Below are positions 1 through 64,000 of a stretch of 64,000 nt of DNA, piece after piece. Source of the DNA: Antedon mediterranea (taxonomy: Eukaryota; Animalia; Echinodermata); NCBI RefSeq assembly GCF_964355755.1, contig NC_092679.1:20257432-20321431 (forward strand), in the 5' to 3' direction. The position numbers and the translations under genes are program-made. Under the pieces are notes generated by a model, which worked only from the letters and a program-made list of their open reading frames with translations, was not told where the DNA came from and ran no database searches. The stretch's first letter is position 1, and each line of letters begins with the position of its first letter.

Positions 1-231
1 TAGGAACAAGATTAACACTATACCGAAAGAAACTTTTTGAAGCTCTAACTGATGTTGGCTCTGATAATTTTCATACTGTTATTAATTCTTACAAACTTAA
101 AGGCCGTAACTTTAAAAATATATGGGATGTTGTTTTCCACCTTGAGAAAGAGGAACTGTTTGATAATACCAAAGAAAAGTGTAAACGGTTTGCAAATCTA
201 CTAAGCAAAAAGTCAAAAAGCAAATTACTAG
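1..231 (+). CDS. Partial exon encoding the second death effector domain (DED) of a kinase-DED family paralog; 5' part is outside the window
   Basis: Frame from position 3 reads GTRLTLYRKKLFEALTDVGSDNF...NIWDVVFHLEKEELFDNTKEKCKRFANLLSKKSKSKLL, colinear with the DED exon at 28837-29350. It has the same phase-1 donor (cta g|gtaat). Confidence 0.8.
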
Positions 232-429
232 GTAATCACTCTTACTTGATGTTTTTTAATTAAAAGAATTATTTCCTAACTGGTGTAGGCATTCAATCAG
301 TACCTGGGGAATGTCCTCTCCTATAATATAGTGAAAATGATTACGTCTTCAAAGTTAATTATTTCAGAAATTAAAGTAGAAAAAGAGGTACTTCAGACAG
401 AAAATGACCTTGGTGTATTTCCTGATTAC

Positions 430-630
430 GTAATTTCCGCCAGGTGTTTCTAATGAAGGTCGTTCATTTCCTGTTATTGTAATAGTTATGTAACTTCCGC
501 CAGGTGTTTCTAATGAAGGTCGTTCTTTTCCTGTTATTGTAATAGTTATGTAATTTCCGCCAGGTGTTTCTAATGAAGGTCGTTCTTTTCCTGGTTTCGT
601 ACTAGTTATGTAATTTCCGCCAGGTGTTTC
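430..630. repeat. Subterminal 60-bp tandem repeat (~3.3 units), mirrored at ~13754-13954
   Basis: gtaatttccgccaggtgtttctaatgaaggtcgttc...tagttat recurs at a 60-nt period on consecutive lines. Confidence 0.95.
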
Positions 631-801
631 TTTGTCTCTTATTTATTATTTTTTCGGCGCGAGGTTCTGGTACGTGGTGAGTGACGTCATTACTTTATTT
701 ATGATTTAAGACGGTGAAACAAAGTGAAGCGGTTATTGTTGTACTATTCTCCAGTTGTTTTGTCTATTTTTGCGTAGAGTATCTCTTTACAGTATTTTAT
801 T

Positions 802-1356
802 ATGTCTGGAAGTATATATTTTTCGCAAGGGAGTTGTGAAGATACTGTTATAATAATTAGCGATGACGAGGAGACTGTTGTTGTTCCAGGCAGTGATATA
901 GATGATCGTTACACGGAGGCCGAAGAGGTTATCCCCGTCGGTATAGATGAAGGAGTCGAGAGGAATAACAGGCCTACAAGTTGTATATTCACGTACGTGG
1001 ACGAGGTGGAGAGAGAATTTTTGTTGAAAATGGAGCGTTTGGTTAAACAATTGTTTGCTGCTCAAGTGTTAGCCAAGTGTTGGGTTTTAAGTAAAGCGGC
1101 ATGTTATGGTTGTGAATTTGACAGGAGCAGTCAAAAAGATCATGATTTCTGTTGTATGAAGTCTCTAGAAGAACAGATTGACTATTTTTATCGGGAGGTT
1201 CTGGATAAGAAGTATGTTTCAGTCGATACCGTTTACAACGAACTAAATATGCACGGGGAATATTCATTGCCTCGGTATAGACATTTCGTTTATTTTCTTG
1301 TCAATACCCTGATTAATTCAGAGACTATTTTTAAGCTGTTGTGCGAGGATATTTAA
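802..1356 (+). CDS. 184-aa element-borne protein with acidic N-terminus, SIM-like motif and Cys/His cluster
   Basis: Intact ORF with the same protein in both arms; motifs VIIISDDEE and CYGCEFDRSSQKDHDFCC. Confidence 0.7.
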   Translation: MSGSIYFSQGSCEDTVIIISDDEETVVVPGSDIDDRYTEAEEVIPVGIDEGVERNNRPTSCIFTYVDEVEREFLLKMERLVKQLFAAQVLAKCWVLSKAACYGCEFDRSSQKDHDFCCMKSLEEQIDYFYREVLDKKYVSVDTVYNELNMHGEYSLPRYRHFVYFLVNTLINSETIFKLLCEDI

Positions 1357-1515
1357 ATTGTGTTTCGCACGTGTCACGGAAACGATTGACCGGAAATAAC
1401 AATCATTATCTTTTTAATTACTGTACTGGGCTACTTCCCTACTGAGCTGCATATATATCCTGACTCAAGCGTAATCGTTCGTTTCACTCTCTGTAACTCT
1501 CTACAGTCTATAAAC

Positions 1516-3354
1516 ATGAGTTTCAACTGTTTACCTACTCCGAAATTAGCAATTGGTGAGAAAGCCCGTAGGACTATGAAAAGAGTTATGGGGAGTTCTA
1601 ATGGTCAAGCTGACGAGTGTAGCAGTTTAAAATTACCAACGATGGCTTCTACATCAGCGAATATAATGGATTCTATAAAATCTTTTAACGGTCAAACAGA
1701 TGAGTGTAAAGGTTTGAGTAAAGCCTCAGGAATGAGCGCCCGAGATTTTGCCGTAATGACCGATGGTGTACCAAAGATTTCCATAACTTCAAAGAATCGG
1801 ATTTTCTTGTCTGAAAAACGCCATGTAGTGGCCCAACGATGGGGTGACGATGTTTATGTTTGTCTCAGAGAGTATTACCAAACGGAAGAATATGGTGCCT
1901 TCAAACCTGGACCTCTAGGTATTAATTTACCCGTTCTGCTGTGGCAAAAACTTTTCAACAATATTGATTTAATTATTCAGGCACTGGAAGACTTACAAAG
2001 AGACATTAACATGGTGGAGGCAGTAAGAATCCCACTTTCGGACATAATTCATGTGGTAGTTAGTAACTGGAAAGAAGAACAATTTGTGTGTATTCGCCGC
2101 TATTACCAGTCAGAAGAAGGAGGCAAGTTTAAACCCGGTAAAAAAGGTGTAAACCTTCCAAAGAGTCAGTGGTTCAAGATAATTGAAAAACACGGTGAAA
2201 TACAAAAGATGATTGAGGAGGTTGGTAATGATAATGCGGCTACTGTTGAAGCGGGTGTTGACAAAAACGGTAATGGAGGACGTTTATTCAATTCAGAACA
2301 TCAATTGCTACCTCCTGATAAGTTATCGGTGCAAAAGATAATAGGGGAAAATTTAGACTGTGATTACCTTCAACTTCTTGATAAAGGAGCAGCCGATACC
2401 TTGTTTAAAAGATGTGAGGAAGAGATTGACTATTTTACCGGTGATCTTGCAAAGGTGAAAGTGTACGGAAAGTGGTTTAATATTTCTAGAAAACAGGTTA
2501 GTTCCATTATGTTTTTATCCGTGGTTTTGTATTAATGACTTGTTAATTACTTGTATATCGTTTCCTTTGTTTTTCTTTATTTACCGCTGTGTAGCTATAG
2601 GTGTAATTTACTCTTTTACTGTAAATTATTTTATTTAGGCGTGTTCATTTACATCTCACCAAATAATAAATGACTTTCTTTGTATGGTTTCCTCTCTGCA
2701 GGTTTCGTTTGGCGATTCGGGCTTAACTTACAAATATTCAGGCAATACAGTACCAGCTTTACCGTGGCCACCATTCCTGAAAGATCTCCGCGACCTTTTA
2801 AAATCGGTTACAGGACATTACTTCAATTTTGTTTTGGTCAACCGGTAAATATTCTTGTTTATTATTTTATTTATTTATTTTATTTATTGATTAAAAGGGT
2901 CCATCGTTTACCTCTAAAACGAATGAACACTATCAGTATTCATACTGGATGATTTCTGCAATTTGCTAGATAAGATTGTTTTAATGGATAATTGGGTTTT
3001 TTTAGTCTCATCTTAAAATATTTTATTTTCTATTGTATTTTGTCGTTACTCTATAGATATGCTACTGGAAGTGATTACATTGGCGAACACAAAGATGATG
3101 AGAAAGACATGAATCAGTTTAGTCCAATCGCCTCTGTATCATTGGGGCAGACACGTATGTTTAGATTTCGACATGGTGATGCGCGAGGTAAGAGTCCCAA
3201 AAGAATCATTGAGCCAGTAACTGTTGATCTTAAACACGGTACATTATTAATGATGAATTATCCCACTAATGAGTACTGGTACCATTCACTGCCTAAAAAT
3301 CAATCCATCAAGCTACCAAGAATAAATCTCACGTTTAGAGATATTAAAAGATGA
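1516..3354 (+). CDS. PC4-PC4-ALKBH2-like fusion, 473 aa; exons 1516-2496, 2702-2844, 3057-3354
   Basis: Two PC4/Sub1-like repeats (VYVCLREYY...FKPGPLGINLP..W and FVCIRRYY...FKPGKKGVNLP..W). GT-AG splicing joins RKQ|VSFGDSGLTYKYSG...FNFVLVNR|YATGSDYIGEHKDDE...WYHSLP...RINLTFR, which resembles ALKBH2 and keeps HxD, the distal H and the RxxxxxR motif. Total 1422 nt, in frame. Confidence 0.9.
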
Positions 3355-6300
3355 GAGAAATGTTATGCAAACATTACAGTCTTTAATAGTGATTGCAGAT
3401 CTCAAGAATATCAACTGTTCATGATCTGTTCTCATTTAGTATAGTAGTACCAGTTGAATTATTTTTGTGATGATATTCCTAAAAATGGTTGTATTATTGT
3501 ATTGAAGTTAATTCACTTAGATCTAGGCCTAATTCCATTGATCGTTAATAATCATGTGATTGTTTGTCATTGTGTGGATAATGATTAACTTTACGAATAA
3601 TTTCTTAAAAGTAACTTGTAATGTATTTCTAATTGTTAAATACAATTTTTTATGTTTTTAATAAGTGTGTAAGTTTTTCTTTAAAGCGTTTTAATCGTAA
3701 TTTCAAGAGTAATAGGTGCTTGTAACGTTTGAAACGGACTGGTAGATAAAACAAAACAAAAACAAAAACAAAACCCGTTATAATAACACTAATAATAGCA
3801 CATATTTTCGTACATGTATCAATGATTTAACTAAAAAAGTGTGATTAATATTATTACAATAAAGACCATGTAGATCTACGATATTTTTACTGTAAGTGGT
3901 ATTGTAAATCAAATTATGAATTCAATCGTGAGAAATGACCGATATCTGTGTATTATTTTATATTACTTTTATCATAATTGCAACAAAAAAAAACTCAAAG
4001 AAATCATAATTATCGAATACAGAAAGACGTTTTGGTTACCAATTGTATTTCTTGACACTTAACACATTTTAACAGAAAACAAGACCTTCAACCGGAGCCA
4101 AAAATTGAAATTTGTTTACGTGAAGGTTATTGCCATTAGATATTCTTAGAACTACTTTGGTTTTTATAAATATTGTAACTTTTTTCTTAGACGTTTATCT
4201 ACCGAGATTTTTTTTCCTTTTTATGAATCTTCTGCTGTTCCTAAGCATTTTTAATTTTTTACAGGCCTTGTTCTTCGCTTTGCAGGCTAAATCTTATAAC
4301 GGCATAGGCCTGCATTTTAACGGTTCTTTGTAAATATCCTCTTATTGATTGTTAACTATAGTTCTCTGAATGTTTTAATTTACCGTAGATGATGAAAAAA
4401 TCCCTTAATCTAGCACCATTTTATAAAAAAGATTCCGCAGTAAATGGTTTATTTTTTATGGTATTGATGGAATCATCGAGGCACAATATTAGGCTGAAAA
4501 ACATGACGTCACTGTTTTAAACGGTTTATCATACAAGAACAATTAACCAATCACAAAACTGAGCTACTGATTTGCGTAAAAGTTTCTGGAAATGACAAAT
4601 TAAGGAAACACGTACACATTAATAAATATATATTAATTTTTATATAAATAATAGACAAAACAAAAGGAAATACACCAAACAAATCATTTTCGTTATGAAT
4701 TTATAATAACTTTAAATTTCGTCCATCACAGGAGACGCGTTTAGCGTTTTCCAATTGTAAAACAGTTTCGCATTGCGTCGCAACACATGCACATACTGCA
4801 AGTACCGTACCGTACTGTAACAAGTCTACTGATATGTATTTTGTTGGTCACTCATCATTTTAGCCAACACATTATTTAACTCATAAGGTGTAATATCTTT
4901 TCACAAATCCTTTATATCTTTACTTTTTATTGACAACTCATAACAAACAAGAACAGTACTCTGAATGAGTGTGGGAGAGGTGTGTGGGAGTCCCATTCAA
5001 CCAAACCTTGCCAATTTGTACTCGACCTACGATAAAACCATTTTTTAAAAGTCAACATAGCGACACGAGAAAACAATTGATAATAGGGATAAAAAGTTTT
5101 TCTTGCATTGTTATACAGTAACCTATGTTTTTCGGGTGTTTACACCATCTCATTGTTTATAATTACGTTTGTTAATATCGATAGTGTTTCTCTAGCAGAG
5201 TTATATTACTTGTTTATACTCGTATAGTTTGCAGTCCTCCATGTTGTTCGTATATTTTGTAAAAAGTGTACTTATGATTACTTTTAAAAACCAACTCATT
5301 TTATTTGCATTTTATCTACACCTCATGGTTAAAATGTCTTGTTTTTCATAGAGTGTGATGCTGCTTAAAACGTTATACTAGTATAACCACCAAAACGGTT
5401 TATTATCTGTAGGAAATCATCAATTGTAACATGCGGTAAACAATACAAATTAGTTTCACAAATTATTAAAAAATAGCACAATTGTTACAAATGAATTTAA
5501 GAAAATAAAGGTGTACAGATTTTATTTCGAAAAAGTGTAGGCCTAGACCTACAAAGATAATTTTACATGAAGTGTACAGAATAAATTAACAAAAAAAAGG
5601 TCACACATACATTAAACTAATTCTTATAAAAGTGTAGTGTACTTCGGTTATCAGGTATATCAACTTTAGTATTTTAAGTATAGGGCCTATTTGTGGCAAA
5701 CACACGGTCCCTTTTAATTGTGGGTAGAGGCCTTTTGCCGTTCGTAATTCAAACTGTTCGTAAAATTGAAGTTAATATTCTGAGATTAGGCCTATAGCCT
5801 ATGATTGCAGCTTATACTAGTCAACGGTCTAAAAGAGCTGTATTGCAGGATGCGAAACATAAAAGTTCATTAATAAACAGTATATTATAACGATAAAGAA
5901 ACGAATGTACGATACACCAATATAGCAATACAATAACTGATTAACTGAAAACTTGAAGTCTACTGTATTCCTACAATCATTCAAGTAGACATTGTTTGCT
6001 GAGTGTATGGTACTTTCTCCAAAGAGAATTCGAACGATGTGCTTTCGAACGTGTTTCTACGGTTATCAGAACGGGTCGATAATGAAAAAAAAACAAACCA
6101 AAACAAACAAACTGCCTACTAACTCCCAAAAAAAATCAATACCTATAAATAAGCTGAACCTACCCCACTAAATAATCTCTTCCATACATCAAAATCGACC
6201 GAAAATGATCTGGACATTGAAAAGTGGACACGGTCGTCTGTTCTTCTTTTTTGTTTCCACGGCTTGGGACGACATCCCTGTTAGTGATGTACGGTAGCCA

Positions 6301-6703
6301 TGCGGTCTACACACTTATGATGACCACATCGCATAACATGTTCAGGGAACTTATTTTTCAACTCTCTGATACAATATTTAAATACAAGTAGACTGGAAAC
6401 CATTTAGGAACAGGGGTTTCTAATAATAAAAGTTGTTTAAAACTTTAGTTATTGTCAAGGGGAATTGTTCAAGACTTGGAGTAAAAATGGTCAAGACCGG
6501 GGGAAAATGGTCAAGACCGGAAGAAAATTAAATTTCACCATTTTATAAGTTTATAGTCATTTATTGTGTTAAAATTCATTTATTATTAGACCTGTATACG
6601 TATTCAATAACAAAAAATAACTTTGTTACATTAATAACATATCTTTAGTGGTTAAGGTAATATATTATTTCTCTGTATACTGACGTCACAAATATAGATA
6701 AAG

Positions 6704-7003
6704 AGAGACTGTAACTAAATGTTTATTACTTATTAGGGTTACAGGGAGAGTTCCATGCAGCATTAAAAGGTCAATTAATGAGCCACCCAACTTAATTAAT
6801 TAAGTGCCGGTACTTAACAAATGTGCTCAAACTCAATAAGGGTTACAAATCTACAAGAGACTGTAACTAAATGTTTATTACTTATTAGGGTTACAGGGAG
6901 AGTTCCATGCAACATTAAAAGGTCAACTAATGAGCCACCCAACTTAATTAAGTACCGGTACTTAACAAATGTGCTCAAACTCAATAAGGGTTACAAATCT
7001 ACA
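6704..7003. repeat. ~150-bp tandem duplication near the palindrome centre (mirrored ~7380-7679)
   Basis: agagactgtaactaaatgtttattac...ggttacaaatctaca occurs at 6704 and again at 6856. Confidence 0.9.
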
Positions 7004-7158
7004 AAAGAGGATATTTTATTTTAAAACTAGGTTTAATAATTAAAAGGTTAATTACTTGAACTCTGAACATGGGAAAAAAGACTTGTGTCAATTGACACTT
7101 GAACTTGACCTCTATACAAGGACGAATAGACTGTGACAATTAACCATGACCTCTGGTC

Positions 7159-7224
7159 AGCCGTTTTATTGGGGGGGCTCTCAAATTTCGACGAAGTCGA
7201 AAACTGAAACCCCCATGCTTTTGG
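7159..7224. other. Central spacer of the palindrome; imperfect hairpin with a GAA triloop
   Basis: TTTCGAC-GAA-GTCGAAA (7186-7202), flanked by TCA/TGA and by G-run (7171-7177) / C-run (7210-7214) pairing. Confidence 0.85.
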
Positions 7225-10200
7225 GACCAGAGGTCATGGTTAATTGTCACAGTCTATTCGTCCTTGTATAGAGGTCAAGTTCAAGTGTCAATTGACACAA
7301 GTCTTTTTTCCCATGTTCAGAGTTCAAGTAATTAACCTTTTAATTATTAAACCTAGTTTAAAAATAAAATATCCTCTTTTGTAGATTTGTAACCCTTATT
7401 GAGTTTGAGCACATTTGTTAAGTACCGGTACTTAATTAAGTTGGGTGGCTCATTAGTTGACCTTTTAATGTTGCATGGAACTCTCCCTGTAACCCTAATA
7501 AGTAATAAACATTTATTTACAGTCTCTTGTAGATTTGTAACCCTTATTGAGTTTGAGCACATTTGTTAAGTACCGGCACTTAATTAATTAAGTTGGGTGG
7601 CTCATTAATTGACCTTTTAATGCTGCATGGAACTCTCCCTGTAACCCTAATAAGTAATAAACATTTAGTTACAGTCTCTCTTTATCTATATTTGTGACGT
7701 CAGTATACAGAGAAATAATATATTACCTTAACCACTAAAGATATGTTATTAATGTAACAAAGTTATTTTTTGTTATTGAATACGTATACAGGTCTAATAA
7801 TAAATGAATTTTAACACAATAAATGACTATAAACTTATAAAATGGTGAAATTTAATTTTCTTCCGGTCTTGACCATTTTCCCCCGGTCTTGACCATTCTT
7901 ACTCCAAGTCTTGAACAATTCCCCTTGACAATAACTAAAGTTTTAAACAACTTTTATTATTAGAAACCCCTGTTCCTAAATGGTTTCCAGTCTACTTGTA
8001 TTTAAATATTGTATCAGAGAGTTGAAAAATAAGTTCCCTGAACATGTTATGCGATGTGGTCATCATAAGTGTGTAGACCGCATGGCTACCGTACATCACT
8101 AACAGGGATGTCGTCCCAAGCCGTGGAAACAGAAAAGAAGAACAGACGACCGTGTCCACTTTTCAATGTCCAGATCATTTTCGGTCGATTTTGATGTATG
8201 GAAGAGATTATTTAGTGGGGTAGGTTCAGCTTATTTATAGGTATTGATTTTTTTTGGGAGTTAGTAGGCAGTTTGTTTGTTTTGGTTTGTTTTTTTTTCA
8301 TTATCGACCCGTTCTGATAACCGTAGAAACACGTCCGAAAGCACATCGTTCGAATTCTCTTTGGAGAAAGTACCATACACTCAGCAAACAATGTCTACTT
8401 GAATGATTGTAGGAATACAGTAGACTTCAAGTTTTCAGTTAATCAGTTATTGTATTGCTATATTGGTGTATCGTACATTCGTTTCTTTATCGTTATAATA
8501 TACTGTTTATTAATGAACTTTTATGTTTCGCATCCTGCAATACAGCTCTTTTAGACCGTTGACTAGTATAAGCTGCAATCATAGGCTATAGGCCTAATCT
8601 CAGAATATTAACTTCAATTTTACGAACAGTTTGAATTACGAACGGCAAAAGGCCTCTACCCACAATTAAAAGGGACCGTGTGTTTGCCACAAATAGGCCC
8701 TATACTTAAAATACTAAAGTTGATATACCTGATAACCGAAGTACACTACACTTTTATAAGAATTAGTTTAATGTATGTGTGACCTTTTTTTTGTTAATTT
8801 ATTCTGTACACTTCATGTAAAATTATCTTTGTAGGTCTAGGCCTACACTTTTTCGAAATAAAATCTGTACACCTTTATTTTCTTAAATTCATTTGTAACA
8901 ATTGTGCTATTTTTTAATAATTTGTGAAACTAATTTGTATTGTTTACCGCATGTTACAATTGATGATTTCCTACAGATAATAAACCGTTTTGGTGGTTAT
9001 ACTAGTATAACGTTTTAAGCAGCATCACACTCTATGAAAAACAAGACATTTTAACCATGAGGTGTAGATAAAATGCAAATAAAATGAGTTGGTTTTTAAA
9101 AGTAATCATAAGTACACTTTTTACAAAATATACGAACAACATGGAGGACTGCAAACTATACGAGTATAAACAAGTAATATAACTCTGCTAGAGAAACACT
9201 ATCGATATTAACAAACGTAATTATAAACAATGAGATGGTGTAAACACCCGAAAAACATAGGTTACTGTATAACAATGCAAGAAAAACTTTTTATCCCTAT
9301 TATCAATTGTTTTCTCGTGTCGCTATGTTGACTTTTAAAAAATGGTTTTATTGTAGGTCGAGTACAAATTGGCAAGGTTTGGTTGAATGGGACTCCCACA
9401 CACCTCTCCCACACTCATTCAGAGTACTGTTCTTGTTTGTTATGAGTTGTCAATAAAAAGTAAAGATATAAAGGATTTGTGAAAAGATATTACACCTTAT
9501 GAGTTAAATAATGTGTTGGCTAAAATGATGAGTGACCAACAAAATACATATCAGTAGACTTGTTACAGTACGGTACGGTACTTGCAGTATGTGCATGTGT
9601 TGCGACGCAATGCGAAACTGTTTTACAATTGGAAAACGCTAAACGCGTCTCCTGTGATGGACGAAATTTAAAGTTATTATAAATTCATAACGAAAATGAT
9701 TTGTTTGGTGTATTTCCTTTTGTTTTGTCTATTATTTATATAAAAATTAATATATATTTATTAATGTGTACGTGTTTCCTTAATTTGTCATTTCCAGAAA
9801 CTTTTACGCAAATCAGTAGCTCAGTTTTGTGATTGGTTAATTGTTCTTGTATGATAAACCGTTTAAAACAGTGACGTCATGTTTTTCAGCCTAATATTGT
9901 GCCTCGATGATTCCATCAATACCATAAAAAATAAACCATTTACTGCGGAATCTTTTTTATAAAATGGTGCTAGATTAAGGGATTTTTTCATCATCTACGG
10001 TAAATTAAAACATTCAGAGAACTATAGTTAACAATCAATAAGAGGATATTTACAAAGAACCGTTAAAATGTAGGCCTATGCCGTTATAAGATTTAGCCTG
10101 CAAAGCGAAGAACAAGGCCTGTAAAAAATTAAAAATGCTTAGGAACAGCGGAAGATTCATAAAAAGGAAAAAAAAATCTCGGTAGATAAACGTCTAAGAA

Positions 10201-11029
10201 AAAAGTTACAATATTTATAAAAACCAAAGTAGTTCTAAGAATATCTAATGGCAATAACCTTCACGTAAACAAATTTCAATTTTTGGCTCCGGTTGAAGGT
10301 CTTGTTTTCTGTTAAAATGTGTTAAGTGTCAAGAAATACAATTGGTAACCAAAACGTCTTTCTGTATTCGATAATTATGATTTCTTTGAGTTTTTTTTTG
10401 TTGCAATTATGATAAAAGTAATATAAAATAATACACAGATATCGGTCATTTCTCACGATTGAATTCATAATTTGATTTACAATACCACTTACAGTAAAAA
10501 TATCGTAGATCTACATGGTCTTTATTGTAATAATATTAATCACACTTTTTTAGTTAAATCATTGATACATGTACGAAAATATGTGCTATTATTAGTGTTA
10601 TTATAACGGGTTTTGTTTTTGTTTTTGTTTTGTTTTATCTACCAGTCCGTTTCAAACGTTACAAGCACCTATTACTCTTGAAATTACGATTAAAACGCTT
10701 TAAAGAAAAACTTACACACTTATTAAAAACATAAAAAATTGTATTTAACAATTAGAAATACATTACAAGTTACTTTTAAGAAATTATTCGTAAAGTTAAT
10801 CATTATCCACACAATGACAAACAATCACATGATTATTAACGATCAATGGAATTAGGCCTAGATCTAAGTGAATTAACTTCAATACAATAATACAATCATT
10901 TTTAGGAATATCATCACAAAAATAATTCAACTGGTACTACTATACTAAATGAGAACAGATCATGAACAGTTGATATTCTTGAGATCTGCAATCACTATTA
11001 AAGACTGTAATGTTTGCATAACATTTCTC

Positions 11030-12868
11030 TCATCTTTTAATATCTCTAAACGTGAGATTTATTCTTGGTAGCTTGATGGATTGATTTTTAGGCAGTGAAT
11101 GGTACCAGTACTCATTAGTGGGATAATTCATCATTAATAATGTACCGTGTTTAAGATCAACAGTTACTGGCTCAATGATTCTTTTGGGACTCTTACCTCG
11201 CGCATCACCATGTCGAAATCTAAACATACGTGTCTGCCCCAATGATACAGAGGCGATTGGACTAAACTGATTCATGTCTTTCTCATCATCTTTGTGTTCG
11301 CCAATGTAATCACTTCCAGTAGCATATCTATAGAGTAACGACAAAATACAATAGAAAATAAAATATTTTAAGATGAGACTAAAAAAACCCAATTATCCAT
11401 TAAAACAATCTTATCTAGCAAATTGCAGAAATCATCCAGTATGAATACTGATAGTGTTCATTCGTTTTAGAGGTAAACGATGGACCCTTTTAATCAATAA
11501 ATAAAATAAATAAATAAAATAATAAACAAGAATATTTACCGGTTGACCAAAACAAAATTGAAGTAATGTCCTGTAACCGATTTTAAAAGGTCGCGGAGAT
11601 CTTTCAGGAATGGTGGCCACGGTAAAGCTGGTACTGTATTGCCTGAATATTTGTAAGTTAAGCCCGAATCGCCAAACGAAACCTGCAGAGAGGAAACCAT
11701 ACAAAGAAAGTCATTTATTATTTGGTGAGATGTAAATGAACACGCCTAAATAAAATAATTTACAGTAAAAGAGTAAATTACACCTATAGCTACACAGCGG
11801 TAAATAAAGAAAAACAAAGGAAACGATATACAAGTAATTAACAAGTCATTAATACAAAACCACGGATAAAAACATAATGGAACTAACCTGTTTTCTAGAA
11901 ATATTAAACCACTTTCCGTACACTTTCACCTTTGCAAGATCACCGGTAAAATAGTCAATCTCTTCCTCACATCTTTTAAACAATGTATCGGCTGCTCCTT
12001 TATCAAGAAGTTGAAGGTAATCACAGTCTAAATTTTCCCCTATTATCTTTTGCACCGATAACTTATCAGGAGGTAGCAATTGATGTTCTGAATTGAATAA
12101 ACGTCCTCCATTACCGTTTTTGTCAACACCCGCTTCAACAGTAGCCGCATTATCATTACCAACCTCCTCAATCATCTTTTGTATTTCACCGTGTTTTTCA
12201 ATTATCTTGAACCACTGACTCTTTGGAAGGTTTACACCTTTTTTACCGGGTTTAAACTTGCCTCCTTCTTCTGACTGGTAATAGCGGCGAATACACACAA
12301 ATTGTTCTTCTTTCCAGTTACTAACTACCACATGAATTATGTCCGAAAGTGGGATTCTTACTGCCTCCACCATGTTAATGTCTCTTTGTAAGTCTTCCAG
12401 TGCCTGAATAATTAAATCAATATTGTTGAAAAGTTTTTGCCACAGCAGAACGGGTAAATTAATACCTAGAGGTCCAGGTTTGAAGGCACCATATTCTTCC
12501 GTTTGGTAATACTCTCTGAGACAAACATAAACATCGTCACCCCATCGTTGGGCCACTACATGGCGTTTTTCAGACAAGAAAATCCGATTCTTTGAAGTTA
12601 TGGAAATCTTTGGTACACCATCGGTCATTACGGCAAAATCTCGGGTGCTCATTCCTGAGGCTTTACTCAAACCTTTACACTCATCTGTTTGACCGTTAAA
12701 AGATTTTATAGAATCCATTATATTCGCTGATGTAGAAGCCATCGTTGGTAATTTTAAACTGCTACACTCGTCAGCTTGACCATTAGAACTCCCCATAAAT
12801 CTTTTCATAGTCCTACGGGCTTTCTCACCAATTGCTAATTTCGGAGTAGGTAAACAGTTGAAACTCAT
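11030..12868 (-). CDS. Second copy of the PC4-PC4-ALKBH2-like fusion; exons 12868-11888, 11682-11540, 11327-11030
   Basis: Mirror of 1516-3354. It differs by a V/F and an A/T substitution in the N-terminal region and by a synonymous change. Confidence 0.9.
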
Positions 12869-13027
12869 GTTTATAGACTGTAGAGAGTTACAGAGAGTAA
12901 AACGAACGATTACGCTTGAGTCAGGATATATATGCAGCTCAGTAGGGAAGTAGCCCAGTACAGTAATTAAAAAGATAATGATTGTTATTTCCGGTCAATC
13001 GTTTCCGTGACACGTGCGAAACACAAT

Positions 13028-13582
13028 TTAAATATCCTCGCACAACAGCTTAAAAATAGTCTCTGAATTAATCAAGGTATTGACAAGAAAATAAACGAAA
13101 TGTCTATACCGAGGCAATGAATATTCCCCGTGCATATTTAGTTCGTTGTAAACGGTATCGACTGAAACATACTTCTTATCCAGAACCTCCCGATAAAAAT
13201 AGTCAATCTGTTCTTCTAGAGACTTCATACAACAGAAATCATGATCTTTTTGACTGCTCCTGTCAAATTCACAACCATAACATGCCGCTTTACTTAAAAC
13301 CCAACACTTGGCTAACACTTGAGCAGCAAACAATTGTTTAACCAAACGCTCCATTTTCAACAAAAATTCTCTCTCCACCTCGTCCACGTACGTGAATATA
13401 CAACTTGTAGGCCTGTTATTCCTCTCGACTCCTTCATCTATACCGACGGGGATAACCTCTTCGGCCTCCGTGTAACGATCATCTATATCACTGCCTGGAA
13501 CAACAACAGTCTCCTCGTCATCGCTAATTATTATAACAGTATCTTCACAACTCCCTTGCGAAAAATATATACTTCCAGACAT
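13028..13582 (-). CDS. Second copy of the 184-aa Cys/His protein
   Basis: Identical translation to 802-1356. Confidence 0.7.
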   Translation of the reverse strand: MSGSIYFSQGSCEDTVIIISDDEETVVVPGSDIDDRYTEAEEVIPVGIDEGVERNNRPTSCIFTYVDEVEREFLLKMERLVKQLFAAQVLAKCWVLSKAACYGCEFDRSSQKDHDFCCMKSLEEQIDYFYREVLDKKYVSVDTVYNELNMHGEYSLPRYRHFVYFLVNTLINSETIFKLLCEDI

Positions 13583-14095
13583 AATGAAATACTGTAAAGA
13601 GATACTCTACGCAAAAATAGACAAAACAACTGGAGAATAGTACAACAATAACCGCTTCACTTTGTTTCACCGTCTTAAATCATAAATAAAGTAATGACGT
13701 CACTCACCACGTACCAGAACCTCGCGCCGAAAAAATAATAAATAAGAGACAAAGAAACACCTGGCGGAAATTACATAACTAGTACGAAACCAGGAAAAGA
13801 ACGACCTTCATTAGAAACACCTGGCGGAAATTACATAACTATTACAATAACAGGAAAAGAACGACCTTCATTAGAAACACCTGGCGGAAGTTACATAACT
13901 ATTACAATAACAGGAAATGAACGACCTTCATTAGAAACACCTGGCGGAAATTACGTAATCAGGAAATACACCAAGGTCATTTTCTGTCTGAAGTACCTCT
14001 TTTTCTACTAATTAATGTTATGGAAATTGTATAATTCTTATTTTATCAATGAATGATACTTAATACTAATTACATTTGTCGTATTTTTTCCACAG

Positions 14096-14209: not shown

Positions 14210-15985
14210 AGGAAAACGCATAGGATCGGGGTTTGGAATGCACAATCTATCTCAATAAAACAACTCCTTTTTTGTTGACCACGTTATTTTTGTCCCAGAA
14301 ACATGGCTTTGTGAGAATGATACAGCTCGAATCTCTGCTTGTAAACCAGATCGTTTTACATTTTTATTCATTTCCTCATCTGGGTAAAAGAGGTGGTGGT
14401 ATCGGAGTTTTATCATGTAAAAGTAATTTCAGTACCTTTGACCCGGTCACTGATGATTTACTTAATGTCATTAGGTCAGCCTCCATTACCTCTTGCTCCC
14501 TGGATCCGCTTCCTCTTAAATTATTTAAGACTTGTCTTCCTACCCTTCTTCCCTTCTTTACCAAAGTTGTCAACACCTCACTGAGCTTAGGTATCTTTTC
14601 ATCTTCACTCAAACATGCCTGCATAACACCATTGTTAAAGAAGCCATCTCTGGATACTGAAGAATTTGCAAGTTACAGACCCATTTCCAATCTTCCATTT
14701 CTTGGAAAAATTATTGAAAGGGTTTTTTCCAGTCAGCTGCAATCATATTTGAATAGCAATGGCTTATTTGCCACTAGACAATCCGCCTATCGGCCAAACC
14801 ATAGTGTAGAATCTGCTCTTCTTCTTGTGCATAATGATATTAGCATTGCACTTGATAACCATAATGAGGTTCTTATGGTCCTTTTGGACTTCAGTACTGC
14901 TTTTGACACCATCAACCATAAGCAGTTATTAAATCGTCTATCATCACGTTACGGTATCTCTGAAATCTGTCATAATTGGTTTGCATCATATCTAAATGAT
15001 AGGTCCCAGTCAATTGTCATCAAGGATGTTTTGTCGAACCCGACTCTGCTTACAGTAGGTGTTCCACAAGGGTCTGTGATTGGTCCTCTTCTGTTTATTT
15101 TATTTACCGCCCCACTACTTGACCTCATTGAATCTCACAATGTGAAGTGTATGGCGTATGCTGATGACACTCAGCTTTATGTCATTTTCAACCCTAATCA
15201 GCGTGATTCTGCTGTCAGTAAAATTTGAATCCTGTATTTCCGAAGTTCGAGCATGGTGTCTATCTAACAACCTAGTTATGAATGATGCTAAAACAGAACT
15301 TATTCATTTTTCTTCTCGTTTTAAGCCTGCCTGTTGGACTGCATCTGTTAAGAGTGGTAATTCTTTCATTCAACCTTCGTCATCCTGTAGAAACTTTGGA
15401 GTTGTCACGCTATTCGTAAAATTGGAAGCATTCGGAAGTACCTGGATTCAAGATCAACTGAGATGCTTGTTTTCGCATTTGTTACATCAAGGCTAGACTG
15501 TTGTAACTCATTACTTTATAGCTTACCAGCTAATGATATCTCTAAAATTCAGCGAGTTCAGAACACAGCTGCCCGATTGATCGTTCAAAGCCCCACAAGG
15601 CAACATATCACACCTGTGCTGAGACAACTTCATTGGCTTCCAGTAACACAAAGAATTACCTTCAAGATCCTGCTTTTTGTTTTCAAAGCTCTTCATAATT
15701 CTTCATCTAAGTTCATTTCTGGACTTATTCAATCTTATGTTCCTAAGCGGTCTCTGAGATCAGGATCAGAGTCTCTTCTTGCCCATTTTGTTCATCCGTC
15801 CACTAAGTTATTTCTCTTTGGAATGCGTTGCCTATTGACATCTGTCAGGCAACTTCCACCAGTGTCTTCAAATCTCTCCTCAAATCCCACCTTTTGAATT
15901 TTTAATTTTCTAAACGTTCCTGTCAATGTAAAGCGCATTGAGGCTTTCAGCATAATGCGCTATATCAGGTACCAGTTATTATTAA
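14210..15985 (+). mobile_element. Degenerate L2/CR1-group non-LTR retrotransposon: internally deleted ORF2 with RT and 3' tail
   Basis: RT motifs YRPISNL, QSAYR, LLDFSTAFDT, GVPQGSVIGP, YADD; C-terminal SRLDCCNSLL and HWLPV; frameshifted; 3' stem-loop aaagcgcattg...aatgcgct followed by a tta-rich tail. Confidence 0.85.
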
Positions 15986-15999
15986 TATTATTTTAAGGC

Positions 16000-18570
16000 T
16001 TGCGAGTCAAAGATTAGTATTCCATCCATCCATAAAAACATCGTAATCGTTATTGTTTATAGACCCCCTCCCGCCTCGACAGCTCAATTCACTGCATATT
16101 TTTCAAAACTTGTTGAAGAACAATACTCTTTATATGCTAATCTCATTATCACCGGCGACTTTAATATCCACGTTGATAAGACTGATGATTCTCATACCAA
16201 ACGCTTTATGGACATATTGGATTCTACCAATTTCGTGCAATTGGTCAAACTACGCCCACACAAAAGCATGGACATACACTTGACCTTTTAATTACCAATA
16301 ACCCCAATTTAATTGTACATTCACACATACATCAATATAATGTCTGGTCACTATTTTCTCCACGCCTTACTTAATGTCTCTAAACCATCAATGCAATAAC
16401 ACAAAAGAAAATTAGGCCTACATTCCGTTGTTTTAAGAATATCAACACCATTGATTTAAAATCGAAATTGTCTGATGGCTTTAGCGATTTCCTTGCTGAA
16501 TCTTGTGATGTTAGTTCAAACTCTCTGCTGTATCTTTTTACAATCAATTTTTATTCTCCTTTTTTTTATCTTTCGTGGGAATCACCCATCTTTATTGTAA
16601 TTTCTTCTCATTTTCAATGTATAATACTATAAATAATTCTGTCATTCTTAAAACGATATAGATAAATATTTGGCATAAAGGTAAATAGACTCTATACAGA
16701 TGAAGCTATAATAGAACCATTGATGAAATATTTAGTGATACATTATACATATTGTATATTTAAAATTGTACTGTGCAGGTAGATTAAAATATTGCATATA
16801 TTAAAACAGTGGATAAAATAAAATCAAGGTAAATTCTCTAAAATGCTAGTTTTTATATTTTTCCATTTTTTGTCTTCTTTAATAAATCGCATCCGTATTC
16901 ATTTGTAATTAAGGACTTCAATTCAACAAATTCCATATCACTTCATGTTTTTTCTAATTTTTCCAAAATGCATGATTTGTGAATGCAAAATGTGAATAAT
17001 GAAATAAGTTCATTTACAACTATGTTTCGTGTACCTGTTATTATTTTATACCAATTGATAGTACCTTCTTTTGGAAAACACTTAAATACGAGGTCATTAA
17101 ATGTAAACCATACATTTTGAATTGCTGTACATTCAACTAGCATATGTAATTCACATTCAATTTCTTTTTTTACACCTGTCTACTATTTTCCAATCTTTAA
17201 GCCTTTTTTTACAAGGTAACATGTTGTGTAGTAATTTAAAATTAAATTGTGCAATTCTATTATGTGCTTAAAGTTGTGTATTTTATTTGTCCATACTTCA
17301 TACCAATCTAGTTCAGCATTATTAAAGACTACTTCCAATTTTGCCTCTGCAATGAAATTGGGATTTACAAAATGCCTATAATAAAATTGACATTTGTTCT
17401 CTTTTCGGAACAATTGTGTTCACTTGTTCGTCATCGTATTGGTCTCTCGCTATAGATTCTTTCCATTCAATGATGTATGGCATTAATAAGCACCATGTAT
17501 TCTATTAGACCATTTTTTCTTTTGGATAGAGTTGGTATTAATACATCAGGTGCTATTATTCTGTTATTTACTATAATATCATTAATTACTTTATATCCAG
17601 AATGTAACCATGTTTCAAAATATATTGATTTTCCATTAGTTGTAATATACCTATTTTCCCGCAATTGTTGTTTTTTAATTTCTGCTACATTTATTGGATG
17701 TCGACCTAACATATTTTAACGTTTCTACATAGAAGTCTGATAAAGAATTTTTATTCTCGCTTCGAGACGAGTTGGCTCCCGAGAAATCAAAGATCATTAA
17801 CATCAGGTGAAGATCTCAGTGGTTCTCTGATGATTGTAGAATTTCCAAGAGAAAGTGTCGCATTCTTGAACGCAAATGGGTAAAGAATCCATCATCTGAA
17901 AATCTATTAGCTTTAAAGAAACAATGCACAGCATACCACATAAACTACTGCACGGTACAAGAACAACTTACATGCAGTCCAAAATTGATGGCTGTGGTTC
18001 TGACCAACGTCGATTTTTTCACATTATGAACAAACTTCTTGGTAAAGGAAAAGATGGTTCATTTCCAACTGCTGTGTCTGACTTGCAACTTGCCAATGAC
18101 TTTAACATCTTCTTTCGTGACAAGGTTGTTAATCTCAGGAAGTCATTTGGTGATATACCATGCCCACATCAAATTCCTCAGCAGCTGGATTCAGAACGTT
18201 CATCAAACTCACCCACACTTTGCAACTTCACCGTAGTCACTGACGATGTAATTCACAAGCTAATAATGAACATCAAAGCTCTTGATCCATTTCCAACACA
18301 GTATTTCCAGTATTTAGAATTATTATTAATTTATCTTTATCAACTGGTACTTTTCTTGGGTCTTGTTACACTTATTTTAAAGAAGCCTTCATTGGATCAT
18401 ACTTCCATAGCAAATTTTCGACCTATTTCTAATGTTGCTTTCTTGTCCAAGATCCTTGAGAAATGCGTTTCCTTAGATCTCATCCATTTTCTTGACGGCA
18501 ATGTTCGACCCTCTTCAATCAGCATATAGAAAGCACCACAGGAGAGAGTCAGCCATTCTTAAGGTGCAAA
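16000..18570 (+). mobile_element. Second degenerate L2/CR1-group LINE fragment (APE, linker, start of RT), interrupted by a Tx1/L1-like fragment
   Basis: APE-like IVIVYRP and IITGDFNIHVD at ~16040-16175; linker/RT text NDFNIFFRDKV and NFRPISNVAFLSKILEK at 17924-18529. Confidence 0.7.
16560..17720 (-). mobile_element. 3' fragment of an L1/Tx1-like retrotransposon
   Basis: Broken ORFs (ENRYITTNGKSIYFETWLHSG; LDWYEVW) resemble the C-terminus of the Tx1 ORF2 copies elsewhere in the window. Confidence 0.65.
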
Positions 18571-24695: not shown

Positions 24696-27675
24696 CTACT
24701 AAATGTATAAAGTAAACTATGCAATTTATTCCAAGTGAATCAAGTGAGGATTCTCAATAAATAAATAAAATATACAATATACAATATTTGATAAGACAGT
24801 GCAATTGAGAAAAGAGTATGTTGATAATGTGGTCAGTGCATGGTAATATTGGGCTTGGCCCATCTCATCTGACCAATTAAGATTAAGAGAATTAATGTGG
24901 TTTACTTGAAATCCATTAGCTAGAAAAGTGAAGGTAACCTGTCAATGTGAGGTTAAATAAAAAGATATATACAGGATGTATAAATAATCAAATTAAAAGT
25001 AAATGTTAAAATGCAAACCCCAAAGCACGTCTGGGAGAATAGAGTCTATGAAAACATTTCCTGATAGATACAGTATTATTGAGATGCATGTAGACGGTAA
25101 TCTGTAAAATCTTGTTCAATGAATAATGACTTTGTTCTTGCTGTCAGTCTAGGCCGGTATTATCATAATTCACTGTCAAATAATCAAAACTTTATTTTGG
25201 CTGTATTTACAATGACTCCCATTTGACTGTCAATCTAGGCCGATATTATAATACTGTCAGATAATCATTAAATTATGATCAAAACAGTCAATAATAAAGT
25301 TTTTGTTTGTAATAGGATACAATTTGTTCACACTTGAATGTCCCATTTATCACTTGTTGACATCTAGGCTTGATGAAGTGACCCCCAGACTTGACCTTAG
25401 CAATAAATAAACTAAAATGACAGAAATTTAGTCTGTTTAGTGGTCTAAAATTGGCTTTAATATATATTATTTAGACATCATTTTTATTTAATTTATTCAA
25501 TAAGCACATCATCTTTTACAGATTCAGTATTATGACATATCAAAGTATTAATTCTTGTTGTATTTTAGTTCAAATACAAAAGTTATTCACTTCCTTCAAA
25601 AAAAAATTATTATTCATTTATAAAAAGAGAAAAGAAACCATTGTCTGACAGACAATTTAAGTATTTTTTGCTTTAAATTACATTTTTTCTGGTAAATACT
25701 TTTTTGGTTAAAGTGAATAAGTATTTTGTGACAAAAAAAAAATTCAGGGGGGACAATATATCTTTAAAACTAAGAAATATTTCTTGTTTTTATTTTATGT
25801 CTTTGGCACATGTGGCCAAGAATTACCAATAGTAAATCATGAAGTTATAAACTCCATGATACCATACTGTACACCGCACCAAAGCCAACTGTGCACAAGC
25901 TTGCATGTTTCAGTCCATCACATGGGTGGGGGGCTGCAGGATACAGTCCAACAGTCGTACAAAACGTACTACAGTCGTACAAAACAAGAAATAAGGCCAT
26001 GGCCTAACTTGGCTTGGAGTCATTGGTCAACTAGGTCTACTTGACCTGGCTTGGCTAGCCTACTATTTTAGGCCTAGGCTTAGTCTAACTAGCTAGAGTA
26101 GGGCTAGCCTAGCTAGGCTAGGCCTAAAAAATCGGACAGAAAATGTGGAGTTATTTACCTGTATTTCACTAATACAAATCTAACAAGCAATTATAGTCAA
26201 CAAAATATTGATAATAAGTGACAAAGTATCATTTTAAAGTTAATATTGTGCCTTAAAAGGGGTTATTTGATTGTCAATTGGCTGTGTTTACAAAGGGCTG
26301 TCACATACGGGATGCTGACTGGAAGAAAGAGCATGCTGCAGGGATGACAGCACATGTTTTTCCACTGTATTGCATTTTTTTTCTAATATAATAATGCGTA
26401 TAGGTTATACTGTAGATATTAAAAAACCTTAGGCCTACTTAATATGAATGAATGCGCTGCTTGCACAGCATTTATTGTCAAATATATAAAATATTTAAAA
26501 TGTGAAGTTTGTACACAGACAAGGCTCTTAAAATTATAAAAAACATCAAAAAACACGATAATGAAAAAACACATCAAAAGAATAATATAATTCCTGTACG
26601 ATGTTTTCTAATTTAATTATACAAAAATAAAACAAGTTTTAACAAAATGTCCATGTCAAAGGAGAAAATAAATTGTTAAACGTATTGCAATTAAACTCCA
26701 GTCGTTCTGACGGTTTGACAGGCTCGTCCATTGTACTAAATAGGTAACATACCTTTTTCTTACAATTTTCAAAGTTAATAATTGCTCTATTGTTAGTCAA
26801 CTGAAACTGTTGTTAGTTGATATAATTAATGTTATTCTGTTACTATTTGCAGCATTTTTTTTAAAGTACCAGTTTATGTGTAATTGTTTATTTCATTCTG
26901 TAAAACTGGTTAATTAAGCAAGATTAGCTGATAAGAACGAAATGAACTAATATTAAATAGGCCAAAACCCCCCAACACATTTCTGTTTATAAGGGAATTA
27001 TACTAAATGGACAAAAAATGAATAAAATATAAAGTAGTATACCCAATGGACGGGCACCTTGATAAATTAAGTGCATACATGTTCTATAAATGGATATATA
27101 ATGTGTATATGAAACGTCATTTATATCCTGGATTTATAAAGCGCTTTATATTGTGAAATCTATATGTAAGCCCTGATAATACAGTAGAAACTGAGGGAAA
27201 CCAAAATCGAAGTATGGTGATACGCCCTGGCGGTAACTCTGGAATCTCTCTGTGAAAGGCTGGATACATAACCATTACACTCGCATTCACATGGTTGTGG
27301 TGAAATTAGCTTAATCACACACAGCATTAAGACAGAATGAAAAAAGTTGTAAATATTTTCCCGAAAAATCTTATGTAGACCTAGAGGAATTTTACAGTAG
27401 GTGGAGGTATGCACTCTCGGAGTGCCGTTTAGTTGTTATTATAAAAGCCTTTTACCCACTGTTGAATACTGTAGGTTATTGTTGCTAGTTGACTATTTAA
27501 AGCTGCATTATACACGAACGAGCACTTACAAAACACAAATCATACGAAGGCCATATCGTATTGTTACATGTTTTCTTTATGTTCATGGGAAATATTTCCA
27601 ATTTGTATTCAAACCGATCCATGCATGCTCTTCCGTGTTCGATATTGAATAGTTAATTTTGTACAGTAAGATAGC

Positions 27676-30600
27676 ATGGATACCAGCTTACGTGTATTTC
27701 GACCAAATGATATCAAAATCAAGAATACTCTGGGAGGTAATGATAAATTCAATGTTTTCATTGGAATTGTAAAAGATACTGGAAAGTTAGTAGTTGTGAA
27801 GAATGTTACGATTGGCGAACATAAACGGGAGTTAGATGTATTGAAGAATCTACGACACAAAAATGTTATCCGACTGTTGGGGACTATTGAGCAAGAACTG
27901 TCCACGTCAACGGGGTTAGTGCTTGAATATGCACCCAATGGTAGCCTATATGAGTTCTTACATAAGAAGCCTAGAACTCATTTCGATTACTTAGATTGGT
28001 GCAAACAGGCCGTAAGTTCGGTCGTGTATATTCACGATAAAGAAATATCGCATAGAGATATAAAATCTAAGAATTATTTAGTGTTTGGAGCTGTTATCAA
28101 GTTAACCGATTTCGGCTTGTCAAAATTCCTAAAGGACGGTAACTCGCGAAATGTACGCGGTACGATTCTCTGGATGTCTCCTGAAGTCCTGACGGAAGCT
28201 GAAGATGTGGATTATTTTAAATCAGATATATACTCCTTAGGAGTAGTCTTATGGGAATTGTATCACCAGAGAAAACCCTACCAACAAGTAAGTATTCTAA
28301 GCGTCCTGCAACATGTCATTCACAATAAAGGTCATCCAGAAATTGATGATTCATGTGACGTACGCTTGCGTGATGTGATGCTGAATTGCTGGAATTACCA
28401 ACCAGATCAAAGACCAAATGCAGAGCAGATTCTGACGTCACTTGATAACGTACCTGAAACATTGGTCAGAAGCAGTTCGAGGGAAAAAGAGAAACAAATA
28501 CATAGAGTACGGATAGTATATTGCTTCTTGTATTTTAATGTTTAATTCTAGTGTACGTCAACATCTTAACAGATTTAACATGCATTCTTTTAATTTCTGC
28601 CTCATCGATAACTATAAATATTAGGCAGATCCGTATACATGAGTTTGCTCAAACTCTCTATTCTTAATAGTTCAGTGTCGTCATACATTTAGTATATGTT
28701 TAGATTTTGAAATAGGTCTAATCATTAATACCTGCAATACAGTACAATTACATCATTTTTGTAAATACATCAATATAATTTTGTAATGGTAATATGCTCA
28801 TCTTTTTCCATTAATTGATGAATTTTATATTTGCAGGAAGAAGATCAGACCGCATTTCAACATTTGCTAGCAAACCTCAGCAAAGATTATGCTGGTAATA
28901 AATACCGTTGGTTAAGAATGCTTCTACATGATATTATACCAAGTGGAGATTTAGAATATAGCACTACAGGGCTTGACTTATTTAATAAACTTGTTGACAT
29001 CGGAAAGATTTCAATTACTGATGTCACCCTCTTGTCAGATGTTGCTGAAACCACCGAACAGACATCGGCAAAAGATCGTATTGCCGAATATAAAAGGACT
29101 GTACAATGCAGTGAAACATTAGGAACAAAATTAACATCATATCGAAGGGCACTTTTTGAAGCCCTCATGAATGTTGGGCATGATGATTTACTTAAGGTCA
29201 TTGGTTTCTATACACTTAAGCACCATGGCTTTGACAATATATGGGATGTTGTCTTTCACCTTGAGCAACAGGAACTATTAATTGATACCCAAGAAAAGTG
29301 TAAACGGTTTGCAGATCTTCTGAACAAAAAGACAGGGAGGATTTTACTAGGTAAATCTTGATAATTATAATTATACATTTCTGGTTATATATAATAATAC
29401 TATTAGAATCAAATTTGGTGGAAGAATTTTTCAATTCTGAATTTACTCGAATGTTAGAATAGATGTCATAATGTAAATGTCTTCTTTTCCCACAGCTGCT
29501 TCTAAGACCCTACTAAGGTAAGAACACTTTACCAAAACGGATAAAAATAAGATAACTCGAGATTTTAACATTTTTTCGGACGTAACGAATTGATTGATTT
29601 TTCTGATAATCATTAGGCATGATGGTCTGTTAGTATAAGTTATTCACAAAATTCAGGACGATAAACATACATGTAAAGCTAGTAGCCATAATATTAGGGT
29701 TTGACAAAATGCTTGTGGCGAATGAATATGATTTGATTTCAAAAGTTTAAAGTTAATTATAATTGCCCTTTGAAACTGGGATTTAATAAATAGTATGTAT
29801 TAGTTTACCAAGCCTGAAATCAACACATCATTTATTTAACAAGCTAATCGATGTCAGTGATAAAACTTTACAAATTTAGAGATGCAACCTGTATGCCTTC
29901 TCTTCAACAATCCGAAGTAACTTTACAACCTGTAACAGCTTCTTTTCTCGAACCAAATGCGAAGATAACGACTGAAACATTTGTCAGTAGTAGTGCCAGG
30001 GAGAAAAAGAAGCACTTACCAGTATACAGAGTAAGGATAGTATAAACCATCTTGCATTGTACGCTTAGTGAAGTAAAACATTTCTCAGAAGTAATGTTCT
30101 TTTAAATGAATAATGATAATAATAACTTGTTTGAAGGTTTGCATGGCGAAATCAAATGTTTGCGGTACACCACGTATATTAATTCTGAAAAGAACTGTTG
30201 AGAAAGTCTTTCTGCATTCTCACTCCTGAGGACGATCAAAGCATATTGATCGAAACGTCGAGAAACTCAACAGTTCTTTTCAGAACTACAGTAATATACG
30301 TGGTTTACCGCAAACTTTATATCAACGATAGTAGTAACAACAATAATATACTAATAATAGAAGATATCTTTATTTTTTTAGATCTATTTGTCAAAGACAC
30401 TGGTTATTGTTATCGCTATTGTTATTTTGATTGCAAGCGTATATGTACAATTACAAACCACCACAGCGCCTCCTAAAAATTGGCTAGCAGAAGCGATGAA
30501 ACGAATGAGGGAAAATCATCTTGAAAAAAACAAAGGAGGGACGGTAAGGCTAACATTTAGATGATTGTACTTCTGACTGGATTATTATTATTATTCATGG

Positions 30601-63927: not shown

Positions 63928-64000
63928 GTAAGGATAGTAGTTGTTTTCTTTATTTAAGGTATAGAAGACGGTACGTCAAAATCTTAACGAATTGAACATG

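Follow-up and report, generated by a model that had tools for sequence, protein, structure and literature searches.

A probable palindromic satellite of Polintons carrying a PC4-PC4-ALKBH2 gene in an intron of Antedon mediterranea

A 64,000-nucleotide stretch of the genome of the echinoderm Antedon mediterranea (assembly GCF_964355755.1, contig NC_092679.1, positions 20,257,432 to 20,321,431 of the forward strand; the whole of it is called the window below) contains an inverted-repeat element of 13,635 bp at positions 375-14009. The element is probably a recent copy of a multicopy palindromic, non-autonomous Polinton satellite (probability about 0.72), and a helper Polinton/Maverick likely supplies its copying and insertion enzymes. 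Each arm carries two genes, ORF1 and a PC4-PC4-ALKBH2 fusion gene. The evidence comes from the structure of the insertion, from a centre that is also found in a second organism, and from a gene family that adjoins Polinton core genes.

Structure and insertion of the element

The element, its target site and the interrupted host gene are organized as follows.

1..231, + strand: host exon that precedes the interrupted intron and resembles a death domain; paralog at 29120-29354
369..374, + strand: left target-site duplication, AATTAA
375..7158, + strand: left arm, 6,784 bp, starting with AGTAGA
7159..7224, no strand: 66-bp centre, with an imperfect hairpin at 7186-7202 (7-bp stem, GAA loop)
7225..14009, - strand: right arm, 6,785 bp, inverted copy
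14010..14015, + strand: right target-site duplication, AATTAA
14096..14114, + strand: host mini-exon after the interrupted intron, like the paralog mini-exon at 29496

Self-BLAST of the window returned the whole element as one 13.6-kb inverted match (99.5% identity). Global alignment of the arms gave 15 substitutions (11 transitions and 4 transversions) and 2 one-base indels, a total of 17 differences (0.25%). The first letters of the element are AGTAGA and the last are TCTACT. AATTAA abuts it directly on both sides in direct orientation, and its chance occurrence at the right junction is about 0.13%. The left flank matches the reverse complement of the right flank at just 9 of 40 positions; the flanks are thus not inverted, and AATTAA is a direct repeat outside the palindrome. 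The initial annotation had described near-perfect inverted arms at 375-7158 and 7225-14009, AGTAG...CTACT ends, and a clean 6-bp AATTAA duplication. The arm coordinates proved exact, and the ends and the duplication were confirmed.

The host exon ending at 231 shares 76% identity with 29120-29354. In the right flank, an acceptor at 14095 is followed by the mini-exon, and the same layout is present in the paralog (29120-29517). The intron minus the element measures 223 bases, versus 145 in the paralog. Since the flanks are non-inverted, the duplication is direct, and the exon/mini-exon layout is as in the paralog, the element is an insertion into a single intron of a death-domain-like gene. Protein-kinase and death-domain-like exons also form a tandem cluster in the window (1-231, 27670-29361, and 63559-63957), which is probably an immune gene array with the element inside one intron.

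The centre of the palindrome

Eleven runs from 5 studies contain part of the arm. Four of them (X1, X5, X6, and X7) were examined, with X2-X4 and X8-X11 left out. All four cover all 30 bins of 1-7600, and all four contain the 66-bp centre. In X6 and X7, which are from organism B, the centre is bridged by one 131-bp contig each, spanning 7126-7257 with 33 arm bases on either side. In X1, which may share its source with the window, overlapping contigs lie over the centre at a depth of 205-231, about 10 times that of the flank contig (a rough comparison, as depth is not copy number). The arm-to-centre depth ratio, also rough, was 2.3 in X6, 1.5-1.7 in X1, 1.3 in X7, and 1.1 in X5, where pure palindromes expect 2. 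One X7 contig of depth 56.8, read by eye, has arm ends that are mutually reverse-complementary at 29 of 30 letters. It shows three changes relative to the window, each present on both arms, and represents a subfamily whose arms changed together.

DNA folding of the centre gave -11.2 and -11.4 kcal/mol (z scores of -1.8 and -2.1), and 18 and 8 of 300 shuffles folded as low. Loops of the C-GAA-G type have an unusually high stability. In organism B, a change at 7185 adds one pair to the hairpin stem.

Fold-back reads can make false palindromes, and the evidence at this locus comes from the assembly and from short contigs. An assembly or chimeric-read artefact is nevertheless hardly credible. The 17 arm differences are transition-rich, the unique and non-inverted flanks carry a direct duplication, and the centre is bridged in contigs of another organism. 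Because the centre is bridged in two runs of the second organism, and one contig there has the same three changes on both arms, the artefact reading was dismissed. The palindrome is real.

Copies and variants of the family

The element is a member of a dispersed multicopy family and not a one-off, since 17 distinct related gene models were found on 7 contigs of A. mediterranea, distinguished by their lengths, and the centre greatly exceeds the flank in X1 depth (roughly, as given above). The arms of the element differ by 0.25%, while 274 of the 413 contigs aligned from X1 are less than 99% alike. One X1 contig (120-404, depth 19.8, zero differences) reaches 30 bases into the element and is one base short of the junction-bridging threshold. 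Three pairs of gene models are mutual nearest neighbours on the same contig: P0001/P0010 (1 difference in 238, consecutive accessions), P0011/P0017 (0 differences in 304), and P0012/P0015 (0 differences in 393). P0012/P0015 probably belong to this element. The two identical pairs could be isoforms; P0001/P0010 are not isoforms, because there is one difference between them.

Another explanation considered was that a truncated Polinton end was duplicated in inverted orientation in a single event at the locus, as break-associated fold-back inversions are known to make palindromes. This explanation is very improbable and largely refuted by the direct duplication at both ends, by the non-inverted flanks that continue one intron, and by the presence of the centre in all four runs, at the high X1 depth.

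Not all copies are symmetric, and deleted variants exist. Position 6057 is joined to 7122 by contigs in X6 and X7. An intron was tried as an explanation of this 6058-7121 gap and rejected, given the short microhomology and the ends, which are not GT-AG. In all four runs a contig doubles back by 289 bases (6424-6712), so that further family copies carry a tandem duplication there. The summed X1 depth is 700-5,600 over 255-2794, which holds the terminal region and the genes, versus 170-700 over the inner arm, with values inflated by repeats; other elements, perhaps including a helper, may contain this part.

ORF1 and its association with Polintons

Both genes of each arm point toward the centre.

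802..1356, + strand: ORF1, 184 aa, a Polinton-associated family with the motif CxGC-x5-SQ-x2-H-x2-C
13028..13582, - strand: ORF1, right-arm copy, identical protein
1516..3354, + strand: PC4-PC4-ALKBH2 fusion gene, 473 aa; exons 1516-2496, 2702-2844, and 3057-3354, with GT-AG introns
11030..12868, - strand: PC4-PC4-ALKBH2, right-arm copy, with two amino-acid differences, both upstream of the PC4 domains

ORF1 encodes a Cys/His protein. A word-based search with ORF1 alone returned no relatives; 25 were found by HMMER and 182 by profile, sharing the above motif. ORF1 matched no Pfam family. Its predicted fold is confident and all helical (pLDDT 85.6), and found no match at E up to 0.001 in the viral or PDB libraries. 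The ESM Atlas returned only matches under 0.9. A search for the motif in viral_contigs found none. In one homologue, P0031, the ORF1-type sequence and PC4 form a single protein.

A motif scan of metagenome contigs, blind to gene context, yielded nine ORF1 loci (L001-L009), and the ORF1 of the window matched all nine (E 9e-9 to 4e-6). The homologues adjoin Polinton core genes in four of these loci (L003-L006) and PC4 in one (L007). In L004, the ORF1 homologue has as neighbours an rve-chromodomain integrase (E 3e-12 and 4e-7) and ORFs that resemble, by eye, ATPase, capsid, and protease genes. The homologue stands beside a protease-like ORF in L005 and L006; in L006 this ORF matches Peptidase_C5 at E 0.023 and the viral cysteine protease S273R at E 0.003. 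In L003, it follows a family-B polymerase motif recognized by eye, and in L007 a PC4 gene (E 3e-7) comes after it. The remaining loci (L001, L002, L008, and L009) have no informative neighbour. With core genes adjoining in four of the nine loci, ORF1 appears to be an accessory gene of Polinton origin. The 8.5-kb contig of L004 holds a Polinton-like integrase/virion module at 704-8470, in which the ORF1-family gene lies between the capsid-like and protease-like ORFs.

The PC4-PC4-ALKBH2 gene

All three exons of the fusion gene are identical to P0015, a 473-aa gene model of A. mediterranea. The protein contains two PC4 domains (Pfam E 1e-23), and its ALKBH2 domain aligns to human ALKBH2 structures at E 9e-71. 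HxD and H, the iron ligands, and R..R, the C-terminal arginines, are kept in 20 of the 21 proteins examined, while P0002 is without the last two. The catalytic motifs of the ALKBH2 domain are therefore intact-looking, and demethylase activity is predicted. The structure model of the PC4 pair matches PC4 and the single-stranded DNA (ssDNA)-binding protein MoSub1 (E 9e-4). It also aligns with the tandem PURA repeats I-II over its full length (TM 0.52 over 146 columns). The model suggests that the tandem PC4 might form a one-chain dimer.

The fusion of PC4 to AlkB was seen, among 9 matches, in Antedon proteins only, and a search of viral_contigs with the PC4-ALKBH2 protein gave no match. In the ALKBH2 tree, 18 Antedon rows split from 3 rows of other echinoderms with support of 100/100; the tree does not resolve a single origin of the PC4-fused rows. 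Four ALKBH2-like Antedon models lack PC4 (P0006, P0022, P0008, and P0023). The isoforms P0008 and P0023 diverge at the position of the first intron of the element gene, which suggests capture of ALKBH2 at the DNA level, introns included. In one X5 contig, exon 1 runs directly into exon 2 (18 of 19 loose letters match), a junction that gives a weak hint that some family member may be spliced; the labelling of X5 as RNA is itself a guess.

Lesions such as 1-methyladenine and 3-methylcytosine arise mainly in single strands. AlkB enzymes reverse both, according to the available part of van den Born et al. 2008 (PMC2553587). As PC4 binds single strands and AlkB reverses single-strand lesions, the fusion therefore suits long displaced strands. 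Protection of single-stranded copying intermediates is a predicted role of PC4-PC4-ALKBH2, with chances that we put near one in two.

Comparison with Polintons and other replicons

Genes for Polinton replication, integration, and virion formation were searched for within the element. No protein-primed DNA polymerase B was detected, as judged from the absence of a long frame and from tblastn with two polymerase fragments of L003. A Pfam scan and tblastn found no retroviral-type integrase. Capsid, packaging ATPase, and protease genes were absent by tblastn with the ORFs of L004 and L006 and by the lack of long frames. Together, 12 core-gene ORFs of L003, L004, and L006 had no tblastn match in the element at E up to 1. 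No stop-to-stop frame exceeds 75 aa in 3400-7250. No support was found for a further, spliced gene concealed within 3400-7158 of the inner arm, where 8 short frames had no Pfam match. The initial annotation had claimed that replication, integration, and capsid genes were missing, which tblastn and the frame scan bear out; it had overlooked four genes, namely ORF1 and PC4-PC4-ALKBH2 in each arm, as well as the central hairpin and the copies that are asymmetric or deleted. Its assignment to Polintons is supported in part, by the 6-bp duplication, the absence of core genes, the multicopy family, and the gene-level link through ORF1.

Intact vertebrate Mavericks measure 12.7-24.6 kb and have terminal repeats of 46-1,447 bp, 6-bp duplications, and (AGT)2 or (AG)3 ends, as described in the available part of PMC8097293. 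The accessible portions of other reports give repeats of 100-1,500 bp for Mavericks in a nematode study and of 584 bp for an Anolis element. The element shares with Polintons/Mavericks (PMC8097293; 10.1101/2023.08.22.554363, as far as these sources were available) the 6-bp duplication (AATTAA, a single site), the AG...CT ends, the overall size, which falls inside the 12.7-24.6 kb range, genes that face the centre, and an accessory gene family found beside core genes. Four features of autonomous Polintons are not found: the polymerase, the integrase, the virion genes, and short terminal repeats. Whereas those elements, in the same sources, have a unique core of 7-8 intronless genes between 46-1,447-bp repeats, this element has 6.78-kb repeats and a 66-bp core without any core gene, and its main gene bears introns. 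The terminal 22-mer was absent from metagenome_contigs.

Tandem repeats and short motifs were also found within the arms.

426..631, + strand: subterminal 60-bp tandem repeat, 3.4 copies, mirrored at 13753-13958; TTA(C/T)GTAA opens each unit
6704..7008, + strand: 152-bp tandem repeat, 2 copies, mirrored at 7375-7679; copy number variable in X6

Foldback transposons typically have long arms that contain tandem repeats, and the end motif is not the exact published Maverick motif. A foldback element of another superfamily that picked up Polinton accessory genes is nonetheless improbable. MuDR-type elements make duplications of 9-11 bp, compared with 6 bp here; the ends are AG...CT, and ORF1 is Polinton-associated. 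Within the 60-bp repeats, TTA(C/T)GTAA occurs at four sites (426-613). The motif TGACGTCA has three sites per arm (682, 4504, and 6681), compared with 0.95 expected from the flanks. Both are possible candidate sites for host transcription factors.

Palindromic forms are known for protein-primed replicons, including the phi29 palindromic mini-genomes, the symmetric recombinants of adenovirus, and the palindromic linear plasmids of Streptomyces. Like the present element, they have one end doubled head-to-head with the same origin at both ends, and need helper proteins. However, those are transient laboratory products, whereas the element is germline-integrated, dispersed, present in two organisms, and equipped with genes. 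Plant RNA viruses likewise carry demethylases of their own, in the form of AlkB domains, which are proposed to guard a single-stranded genome (van den Born et al. 2008, PMC2553587, available in part). Here, in contrast, an intron-bearing ALKBH2 related to echinoderm host genes is fused to two PC4 units on a DNA element. The PC4 pair shares the ssDNA-binding fold with PC4/Sub1, the PC4 homologue of phage T5, and PURA repeats I-II, the last of which also have two units per chain; unlike in the PC4/Sub1 proteins, an AlkB enzyme is fused to it. Tlr and Teratorn are long-repeat relatives, as far as the available parts of PMC6431247 and PMC4028283 describe. Teratorn is also a virus-derived giant transposon with long inverted repeats, but it combines a herpesvirus with piggyBac, spans 41-182 kb, and has a large unique region (PMC6431247, same part). 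The accessible parts of the adintovirus papers contain no mention of AlkB. Titles and abstract openings, a coverage that left the founding Polinton paper and Repbase outside, revealed no fully palindromic Polinton and no Polinton-borne PC4-ALKBH2 fusion.

Proposed replication and alternatives

A fold-back replication intermediate might account for the near identity of the arms, with odds that we regard as about even. The protein-primed polymerase of the helper would start at either AGTAG end, both being identical. The displaced strand is self-complementary and would fold into a 6.8-kb hairpin duplex with the double-stranded end restored. No separate second-strand step would be needed, because the folded strand again presents a double-stranded end. 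Copying round the central GAA hairpin, or folding back at it, would rebuild the palindrome and reset the arms to near identity. The retroviral-type integrase of the helper would then insert the element and generate the 6-bp duplication. The tandem PC4 would serve as a one-chain ssDNA-binding unit, carrying ALKBH2 to exposed strands where 1-methyladenine and 3-methylcytosine form. The most specific form of this proposal is tentative, and we think it rather less likely than otherwise: the element might belong to a class of inherited snap-back satellites that depend on Polintons as endogenous DNA viruses and replicate as a half-length hairpin, and might have its own single-strand repair enzyme, made from a Polinton-associated PC4 pair and an ALKBH2 captured from the host.

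The main rival for the arm identity is gene conversion. A Polinton-derived palindrome could be moved by the helper integrase, with its arms kept alike by chromosomal gene conversion, no fold-back intermediate, and the cargo as a passenger. Large palindromes, those of the human Y chromosome among them, are homogenized by gene conversion; some copies are asymmetric or deleted, and the folding of the centre is modest. However, the centre is conserved in both organisms, and the three arm changes of X7 reach to within about 15 bases of the centre on both sides. Moreover, an integrase by itself would not multiply the element, whereas its gene models are spread over 7 contigs. This alternative is thus considered unlikely, though less so than the other explanations above.

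Several observations weigh against the palindromic Polinton satellite proposed here. An autonomous helper Polinton in the same host is inferred; no helper with the same ends was seen, although no search aimed at one was made. A young insertion would show near-identical arms under gene conversion too, and the centre folds better than shuffles by a modest margin only. The end AGTAGA has 5 of the 6 letters of (AGT)2 and is neither (AGT)2 nor (AG)3, a consensus that is that of vertebrate Mavericks. Four of the nine ORF1 loci are too short for context, the assignments in L005, L006, and L003 are weak by profile, and the motif-bearing ORF1-type gene may also occur on other elements. The PC4 pair was modelled with middling confidence (pLDDT 64). 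Among the 17 gene models, 11 have no mutual-nearest partner on their own contig, and two of these 11 have two accessions per sequence. In the sole centre contig of X5, one side of the centre leads to about 6620-6650; in X6, 6058-7121 is missing from about one third of the arm depth (132 of 360).

Neighbouring repeats in the window

The window contains another self-inverted stretch, which is older and about 3.4 kb long, at 57199-60563 (84.7% identity, very AT-rich, no long ORF); it is possibly a decayed foldback element. Two copies that resemble a LINE lie in opposite orientation at 33463-39501 and 48228-52669, and are 98.9-99.2% identical. They contain endonuclease-like and reverse-transcriptase-like ORFs; the first copy is interrupted at 34760-36357 and the second is frameshifted. 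A broken LINE reverse transcriptase (RVT_1, E 7e-27) is found at 14224-15897, about 200 bases to the right of the element, with a further fragment at 17900-18529. The 484-aa frame at 41018-42472 may resemble transposase proteins of the Academ type, and the 383-aa frame at 61619-62770 (- strand) may resemble ORF1 of CR1/L2 LINEs.

Implications

What the locus adds is evidence from a second organism that the centre is conserved and the arms change in concert, a link to Polintons at the level of genes, and an intact-looking ssDNA-binding repair fusion. The replication cycle of animal Polintons is a model drawn from gene content, and an all-palindrome dependant predicts a half-length snap-back hairpin with one end blocked. 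If the proposal is true, this hairpin would give Polinton replication its first intermediate open to direct detection, and the age of the insertion could be read from the 17 arm differences, just as that of a provirus is read from its LTRs. The minimal cis signals would be those defined by the element: the ends, the 60-bp repeats, and the central hairpin. PC4-PC4-ALKBH2 would be to a DNA element what AlkB domains are to RNA viruses. Assemblies readily collapse such palindromes or drop them as artefacts, so this class is possibly undercounted. For Antedon itself, most of the 'ALKBH2-like' gene models are probably element cargo and not an expansion of a host gene.

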